DNA from: a virus | Strand: one strand, 5' to 3' | Length of the DNA stretch: 64,000 nt | Virus record (IMG/VR): IMGVR_UViG_3300025137_000014 | Span: 64,001 to 128,000 of that record | Part shown: positions 3,554-3,793 of the stretch, piece after piece | Position numbering within the stretch: the stretch's first letter is position 1 | How the letters are laid out: each line of letters opens with the position of its first letter | Notes under the pieces: generated by a model | Told to the model about the DNA's origin: nothing | The model's database searches: none | What the model saw: the letters and a program-made list of their open reading frames with translations, nothing else | Position numbers and translations under genes: made by a program

Positions 3554-3787
3554 TTATAATATCGGTGTGCCTGCTTTTTTACTCATTTCAAAATTCTGGT
3601 CGATAATATCATTCAGATGTTTGATATGGTTTACTGGCATTTCATGAAGTTCGGAGATAGAAACCCCACCTCTCATGTACCAAGATAATTGTAACAGATT
3701 TCTATGTACTTTGTCAAGTTCTTTTTCAAAGTTTTTTTGTTTTTTTGCAATTTCTTCACCGCTGGCGGTTGCTAGCCAGCTTAAGAA
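3554..3787 (-). CDS. 77-aa -1-frame extension of gp26-like gene (gp51/gpT-like), no own start
   Basis: Open frame FLSWLATASGEEIAKKQKNFEKELDKVHRNLLQLSWYMRGGVSISELHEMPVNHIKHLNDIIDQNFEMSKKAGTPIL*; first ATG only at residue 38. Confidence 0.7.
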   Translation of the reverse strand, partial: FLSWLATASGEEIAKKQKNFEKELDKVHRNLLQLSWYMRGGVSISELHEMPVNHIKHLNDIIDQNFEMSKKAGTPIL

Positions 3788-3793
3788 AAATTT
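3761..3793 (-). promoter_or_regulatory. Programmed -1 ribosomal frameshift signal
   Basis: In-frame heptamer A_AAT_TTT (3793-3787), 6-nt spacer, hairpin GCTGGC-N8-GCCAGC (3780-3761). Confidence 0.7.

Follow-up and report, generated by a model that had tools for sequence, protein, structure and literature searches.

The end of the gp26-like gene of an uncultured marine jumbo phage, where a slippery sequence stands just ahead of the stop codon, raises the question of whether one protein or two are made from this gene. By the textbook, tail assembly genes of lambda-, P2-, and Mu-like phages are expressed with a programmed −1 frameshift, and T4 stands out as the exception to this rule. The window analyzed here, that is, the whole stretch of 64,000 nucleotides (nt), comes from an IMG/VR virus record of 187 kb, the completeness of which is estimated at about half. 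The initial annotation had proposed that a programmed −1 frameshift at the end of the gene yields a short and a long product. The elements concerned are the following:

3781-4614, minus strand: zero-frame open reading frame (ORF) of the gp26-like gene (P0001), encoding the short product of 277 amino acids (aa), from the ORF list and its translation
3793-3787, minus strand: slippery heptamer A_AAT_TTT, in the X_XXY_YYZ register of the zero frame
3786-3781, minus strand: 6-nt spacer TCTTAA, which includes the zero-frame stop codon TAA (3781-3783)
3780-3775 and 3766-3761, minus strand: candidate stimulatory hairpin, GCTGGC and GCCAGC, with an 8-nt loop between the arms
3787-3557, minus strand: −1 frame extension of 77 codons (P0002), closed by the stop codon TAA at 3556-3554, from the translation

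On the minus strand, the 3′ end of the 277-aa ORF reads GCA AAT TTT TCT TAA. The −1 frame is shut by a TAA four codons ahead of the slip site and is thereafter open for 77 codons, and its earliest ATG, GTG, or TTG is codon 38. Because there is no such codon before this position, the ORF list gives just a 40-aa ORF at 3554-3676. The predicted products are thus a protein of 277 aa and one of 353 aa (276 + 77), with the junction PANF-FLSWLATAS. All that the initial annotation stated about this part of the sequence (the heptamer, the 6-nt spacer, the hairpin, the 77-codon −1 frame with its late start, and products of 277 and about 353 aa) is borne out. With a per-codon stop probability of 0.063 on the minus strand, 81 codons in a row would rarely stay open (P ~0.005). 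In-frame heptamers within the last 6 codons are found in 4 of the 63 stop-to-stop ORFs of at least 150 aa in the window, and only the gp26-like ORF among those 63 pairs a terminal heptamer with a −1 frame that is open for at least 60 codons. Directly 3′ of the extension's stop at 3554 lies a GC-richer stretch without ORFs (3050-3520, minus strand). Contigs from an RNA library, which may also contain DNA, cross the extension's stop and reach into the beginning of this stretch (3442-3629 and 3491-3659), so co-transcription of this stretch with the gp26-like gene is possible.

The initial annotation had asked whether the heptamer and the stem are conserved in homologues. To the loci retrieved via the family alignment (80 loci, 31 to 89% identity) and via the alignment of fused forms (80 loci) we added seven cultured phages, and after the removal of duplicates there were 132 distinct loci (25 to 89% protein identity) in which the extension is in the −1 frame of the body. 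An in-frame X_XXY_YYZ heptamer is present at the homologous codon in 132 of these 132 loci, a simple tally that is inflated by kinship, as the loci are not phylogenetically independent. T_TTT_TTC alone is found in 71 loci, A_AAT_TTT together with T_TTT_TTC in 29, A_AAT_TTT alone in 24, and other variants of the same two heptamers in 8; T_TTT_TTC, T_TTT_TTA, and T_TTT_TTT all occur. A +1 shift would be needed in none of the 132 loci. The codon ahead of T_TTT_TTN ends in T in all 105 loci that have this heptamer, compared with a background T-ending fraction of 0.61 to 0.68 in the same genes, and the first Phe codon at the slip site of these loci is always TTT. The amino acid encoded by the T-ending codon varies among N, S, D, T, H, G, A, and R. 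Because the base was kept through repeated amino acid changes, it points to a constraint at the nucleotide level.

Among cultured phages, a nucleotide search with the region gave no match, and a tblastn search with the body found the gene in 93 phage records. These belong to jumbo phages of 286 to 490 kb, save for three shorter and apparently partial records. The junctions of the seven phages that we examined read as follows:

Atu_ph07: CAT TTT TTC
Phosso: CAT TTT TTC
121Q: CAT TTT TTC
Xoo-sp13: GCT TTT TTT
PA5oct: AGT TTT TTC
RaK2: CGT TTT TTC
SCTP-2: GAT TTT TTC

The extension profile locates the expected site in PA5oct, 121Q, RaK2, and SCTP-2, in each case from profile position 1 (E values of 1e−4 to 1.5e−12). 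A frameshift is annotated at the junction in none of the seven records examined (of the 93 that hold the gene). The extension is uncalled in PA5oct and RaK2, and it is a small separate coding sequence in Phosso, 121Q, Xoo-sp13, and SCTP-2. An ATG in the −1 frame overlaps the stop codon (as ATGA or TAATG) in Atu_ph07, Phosso, 121Q, and the locus pair L067/L075. A full-text search of the literature, outside the coverage of which most subscription journals fall, brought up no account of frameshifting in a gp26-like gene.

Measured from the slip site, the extension is exactly 77 codons long and free of indels in nearly all tabulated loci, and 78 codons long in two. A small subclade (L054, L078, L082, and L090) has an extension of 80 aa and keeps both the heptamer and the −1 frame. 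The extension carries the motif SWYMRGG...SKKAGxPIL; in the small subclade, VVYSEG stands in place of WYMRGG and the C-terminus is divergent (..NEYL). The initial annotation had also asked if homologues have an independent start. The distance from the slip site to the first ATG in the extension's frame ranges from 0 to 45 codons; in a few loci this ATG is upstream of the slip site, inside the gene, and most loci lack an ATG, GTG, or TTG for 13 to 36 codons beyond the junction. Because the position of the first ATG varies between loci, the extension has no conserved start of its own. In codons 13 to 36, which precede the window's ATG, the synonymous share of single-base codon differences is 0.49 in the −1 frame versus 0.19 and 0.10 in the other two frames, and the same test in a second, more distant clade gives 45% versus 15% and 10%. 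In these substitutions, the stretch ahead of the window's ATG shows the pattern of a coding sequence read in the −1 frame. An AlphaFold2 model of the extension, based on 49 sequences, has four helices and a mean pLDDT of 92, with values of 94 to 97 for residues 1 to 30. According to this model, the 353-aa trans-frame product would end in a compact domain made of helices. The first codon past the slip site marks the start of conservation, of the coding signature, and of the folded domain alike. Searches for known relatives of the domain gave nothing in Pfam and PHROG except a chance "hemolysin" PHROG (E value of 0.05), nothing below an E value of 0.2 when the extension profile was run against PDB sequences, and no convincing match for the model in PDB and BFVD with Foldseek.

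The extension profile had 518 matches among 1.84 billion representative proteins, and most of these are truncated calls of small ORFs. About 20 of the best 150 matches, however, are proteins of 319 to 351 aa, to which the profile aligned from its position 1 to the C-terminus. These are diverged gp26-like proteins (20 to 47% mutual identity) that are fused in frame to the extension, with the junction ...LDLDxSxxFRxKLI... In the DNA of five fused loci (L098, L099, and L101-L103), the junction has TTT or TTC and then CGN or AGA, and there is no T-run. Body and extension would form a single fold, because a model of one fused protein from a joint alignment has a pLDDT of 94.3 and a pTM of 0.88; comparisons of this model using Foldseek and VIA-align gave a best Z score of 5.8, for helical fragments only. 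In-frame fusions are a classic indication that both parts work as one polypeptide, and we read these homologues accordingly. In a quick maximum-likelihood tree, which is midpoint-rooted and has a long T4 branch, the fused forms make up two groups nested among frameshift-type sequences, and every early branch (Xoo-sp13, PA5oct, SCTP-2, Atu_ph07/Phosso, 121Q/RaK2, and the marine clade) is of the frameshift type. This topology weakly suggests that the frameshift is old and was later replaced by fusion at least twice. A continuous ORF in homologues had been named in the initial annotation as an observation that would imply an assembly indel. Such ORFs do exist, but they are limited to two diverged lineages that lack the T-run and, therefore, support fusion as the product rather than an indel in the assembly.

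Conservation of the stem, in contrast to that of the heptamer, is confined to a part of the family. A stimulatory structure is looked for 5 to 9 nt downstream of a slippery heptamer. In 30 distinct sequences of the marine clade, for which, as for the window, A_AAU_UUU is the usable heptamer, the hairpin starts 6 nt after the heptamer without exception and 94% of the alignment cells are paired, while the zero-frame stop lies anywhere from 6 to 42 nt past the Phe codon; in the more distant clade, which has the site U_UUU_UUC, we found no shared downstream structure. Within the marine clade, one pair changes from G-C to A-U in 2 sequences, and the 3′ arm is shifted (AGUCAGC) in 6. Covariation is weak (23 to 26 of 500 shuffles match the observed values). 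The hairpin is short, and its arms encode conserved residues (W and A-S). On its own, the window's hairpin has a folding energy of −11.8 kcal/mol (z = −1.9), and 12 of 200 shuffles fold equally well. We regard the hairpin as a probable, still putative stimulator of the slip. The U_UUU_UUC clade, without a shared downstream structure, resembles many phage chaperone frameshifts in this respect, and an upstream Shine-Dalgarno-like stimulator of the kind present in dnaX is not seen here.

Several other potential structures were observed around the junction. In the minimum free energy fold of an 81-nt region (3744-3796, minus strand), the slippery site UGCAAAUUUUUC pairs with the downstream GAAGAAAUUGCA and encloses the hairpin. 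This fold has an energy of −22.3 kcal/mol (z = −3.5); GAAGAAAUUGCA encodes a conserved E-E-I, and the pairing may just mirror A/T-rich codons. In part of the distant clade (L053, L056, L059, L061, L062, L065, L066, L072, L081, and L088), a conserved GCCUCC(UG) is located ~6 to 14 nt after the heptamer, and its complement (CA)GGAGGC follows ~50 nt further downstream, or ~60 nt after the heptamer. The complementarity is perfect over 8 nt (GCCUCCUG and CAGGAGGC) in L061 and L072, shorter in the other loci, and absent from the AT-richer members. A long-range stem between these two elements is possible on the basis of their complementarity. Atu_ph07 (L001, 3990-4015) and Phosso (L002, 3979-4008) have strong hairpins of unlike sequence (9 to 11 bp, −15 to −17 kcal/mol) located 19 to 20 nt past T_TTT_TTC, which is beyond the classical distance of a stimulator.

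Could the extension be expressed without a frameshift? It might be a separate small gene, encoding a protein of ~8 to 9 kDa and translated via termination-reinitiation, coupling, or a non-canonical start, with the T-run kept for Phe only. The ATG codons that overlap the stop in Atu_ph07, Phosso, 121Q, and L067/L075 agree with this possibility, since the extension might there be translated by itself through coupled initiation as well, and so do the small coding sequences listed in GenBank. Moreover, T4 gp26 also ends in ..EFFELL, and Phe-Phe is therefore conserved as protein even where there is no frameshift. Most loci, however, are startless over the first 13 to 36 codons, and yet conservation, coding signature, and fold begin at the slip site rather than at a start codon. 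The constraint also goes beyond the protein, for all 105 of the loci concerned have T as the third base of the codon ahead of the run and TTT as the first Phe codon, while T4 has TTC TTT. Finally, the fused homologues place the domain in frame on the body's C-terminus. We consequently regard a separate gene as improbable.

A change at the level of RNA would also produce the long form, if the polymerase stuttered on the run of T5 to T7 and added one U in some transcripts. The conserved element is indeed a homopolymer run, the required change (one additional nt in the mRNA) is what stuttering produces, and the distant clade does without a conserved RNA structure. Efficient transcriptional slippage in bacteria is known from runs of about 8 to 9 or more, and the run here is only 5 to 6 T. 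In addition, the exact X_XXY_YYZ register, which matters to ribosomes and not to the polymerase, is found in 132 of 132 loci, and the marine clade has a heteropolymer (AAATTTT) and keeps a hairpin at 6 nt. No indel is seen in the contigs compared; those derived from RNA (X15-X17) cover 3442-3659 and parts of 3872-4653, and none of them bridges the slip site at 3787-3793. Because the run is short and always stands in the same register to the reading frame, transcriptional slippage is, in our opinion, a distinctly unlikely source of the long form. An indel introduced at the homopolymer in sequencing or assembly, or a recent frameshift mutation in a decaying gene, might be suspected as well, given that homopolymer runs are error-prone and that some homologues have continuous ORFs. 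Yet a contig from an independent DNA run of another study (X2) covers 3527-4110 of the window with two substitutions and zero indels. Nine IMG/VR contigs with 85 to 89% protein identity keep the heptamer, the hairpin, the extension length, and the frame, and they differ in the stop codon (TAA or TAG) and the Ser codon. As the X2 contig has no indel and the nine contigs agree, the arrangement is not an assembly error. Furthermore, it recurs in 132 distinct loci from many samples, including finished genomes of cultured phages, and the fused forms are a diverged lineage that lacks the T-run and not one-base variants. An artefact or a decaying gene can thus be virtually discounted.

A programmed −1 ribosomal frameshift at the end of the gp26-like gene, giving a 277-aa and a 353-aa form, is therefore very probably the correct explanation. 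It is the best reading of the heptamer, the frame, the conserved extension length, the coding signature, and the natural fusions, and on this point our comparison of sequences sides with the initial annotation. We propose that a fraction of ribosomes on the gp26-like mRNA would slip back by one base at A_AAU_UUU (3793-3787). In the P site, the Asn-tRNA would exchange AAU for AAA, and in the A site, the Phe-tRNA would leave one UUU for another. This slip would probably be aided by the hairpin that starts 6 nt after the heptamer. A_AAU_UUU is not known to rank with the bacterial slippery sequences on which frameshifting is most efficient. Ribosomes that do not slip would decode Ser277 and stop, which would yield the 277-aa protein, and those that slip would read 77 more codons and yield the 353-aa protein, composed of the body and the helical C-terminal domain. 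Both forms may act in baseplate-hub or tail assembly, like T4 gp26, in a ratio set by the frequency of slipping. The slip itself, how often it happens, what the hairpin contributes to it, and what each isoform does are inferred from the sequence comparisons.

The zero-frame body matches the Pfam family PF12322 (T4_baseplate; E value of 1.7e−17, 64.3 bits, cutoff of 24.5) and phrog_150 ("baseplate hub"; E value of 1.5e−22), and 213 homologues of it were found. Two CxxC pairs are invariant in alignment A5 (C87, C90, C256, and C259, in the numbering of its first sequence, the fused homologue P0145), and these pairs are zinc-ribbon-like. Based on these matches, we conclude that the 277-aa gene is a T4 gp26-like gene for a baseplate hub or hub-assembly protein. 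T4 gp26 has been catalogued among hub proteins as an assembly chaperone (PMC3004832; see also PMC9024508). It is homologous to the body (PF12322) and shorter (208 aa versus 277 aa). T4 gene 26 (L093, 2803-3429) ends in ..CPECGKTHAHVIRGLKEFFELL and keeps the second CxxC pair and the Phe-Phe of the jumbo phage proteins. At this C-terminus (..EFFELL), however, T4 spells Phe-Phe with the non-slippery TTC TTT, in contrast to the slippery codons of the jumbo phages. T4 gene 26 has no extension, and gene 25 begins at its stop. Two nested products are likewise made from T4 gene 26, although gp26′ arises from an internal start and not from recoding. With the extension profile, we found no match at an E value of ≤1 in the whole T4 genome. 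We also tried T4 gp51 as a counterpart of the extension and rejected it, given a hhalign probability of 2%. The suggestion of the initial annotation that gp26 and gp51 are the equivalents of lambda G and T is consequently not supported.

The initial annotation had also taken the adjacent gene for a probable tape measure gene. The genes next to the gp26-like gene are the following:

4723-6951, plus strand: divergent gene encoding 742 aa
7010-8710, plus strand: portal gene, located after the 742-aa gene

The order of a gp26-like gene, a divergent gene for a virion protein of ~740 to 830 aa, and a portal gene is shared by the window and Phosso, and the divergent virion-protein neighbor is also present in PA5oct, 121Q, and RaK2. 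The 742-aa protein is homologous to a virion structural protein of PA5oct (98% hhalign probability), which was detected by mass spectrometry (MS) according to its annotation. In PA5oct, this neighbor is flagged as detected in the virion by MS and the gp26-like homologue is not, a hint that the latter may be missing from virions, as the products of G/GT-type pairs are; in such pairs, the common part binds the tape measure and the extension binds the tube protein. Searches of Pfam, PHROG, and NCBIfam with 23 members of the 742-aa protein family gave no match, despite a well-conserved central block, and a PDB profile search with the family found nothing. Comparisons of the 742-aa protein with T4 gp29 (BLASTP and hhalign) and with the RaK2 neighbor (hhalign) were not significant. 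Language-model look-alikes of the 742-aa protein include tape measure clusters (0.92), which is a weak lead, and the annotators of RaK2 likened the RaK2 neighbor to a tape measure protein, which we also treat as a lead only. The neighbor is, therefore, best described as a divergent gene for a homologue of a virion protein, and the tape measure assignment finds no backing in the profile databases or in similarity to T4 gp29.

How far does the likeness to other recoded systems go? Xu, Hendrix, and Duda (2004, Mol Cell 16:11) reportedly described that the −1 frameshift is conserved among the genes for tail assembly chaperones, with lambda G/GT as an example. The gp26-like gene is similar to this pair in its proposed −1 slip on X_XXY_YYZ a few codons ahead of the stop of a tail-morphogenesis gene, in the predicted short and C-terminally extended forms with a common N-terminal part, in its conservation across very divergent phages, and in encoding a presumed assembly factor rather than a part of the virion. 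It differs from G/GT in its larger body (277 aa) with a zinc-ribbon-like CxxC pair, in its short extension (77 aa), and in its location, since it is divergent from a large neighbor and is not placed between tube and tape measure genes. A chaperone gene of the G/GT type is expected just ahead of the tape measure gene and in its orientation; here, the neighbor at 4723-6951 is on the opposite strand. There is no sequence similarity to chaperone families in Pfam and PHROG, and no fold similarity according to Foldseek and VIA-align (best Z score of 5.8, helical fragments). Membership in a chaperone family is thus not supported, and the likeness to G/GT appears to be limited to the logic of expression. 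P2 E/E+E′ and the Mu-type chaperones are examples of a −1 frameshift that gives two nested products from an assembly gene of a contractile tail, and these genes are small and located directly upstream of the tape measure gene; we detected no homology between them and the gp26-like gene. In dnaX, a heptamer and a hairpin ~6 nt downstream produce two nested proteins, tau and gamma, in a fixed ratio, and some lineages achieve this by other means. The shifted frame of dnaX, however, ends almost at once and makes the frameshift product the shorter one, whereas the slip proposed here would add a folded domain.

The novelty would lie in finding a canonical −1 frameshift outside the gene families and phage lineages known to have one. 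The annotation can be corrected at once, given that the extension is now either uncalled or a truncated orphan ORF. Because the site is present in phages that infect E. coli, Klebsiella, and Pseudomonas and that can be cultured and manipulated, the existence, ratio, and roles of the isoforms are directly testable, and the natural variants (the short form only in T4, the long form only in the fused lineages, and both forms elsewhere) are ready-made comparisons. The reading would mean that a large T4-related group, comprising jumbo phages of the RaK2/121Q/PA5oct/Atu_ph07 type and their abundant marine relatives, has an equally conserved frameshift in a different gene family, that of the homologues of T4 gp26, which is one of the least understood assembly factors of the baseplate hub. 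We tentatively speculate, while regarding it as doubtful, that the short and long gp26-like proteins might fill the role of the G/GT pair in phages related to T4: the product of the neighboring gene, as tape measure or hub protein, would be held by the body, the 77-residue domain would recruit a second partner (a tube initiator or the tube protein), and T4 would have lost the extension secondarily. If this conjecture were true, T4 hub assembly, with its unexplained roles of gp26, gp28, and gp51, would be tied to the rule by which long-tailed phages make their chaperones through recoding.
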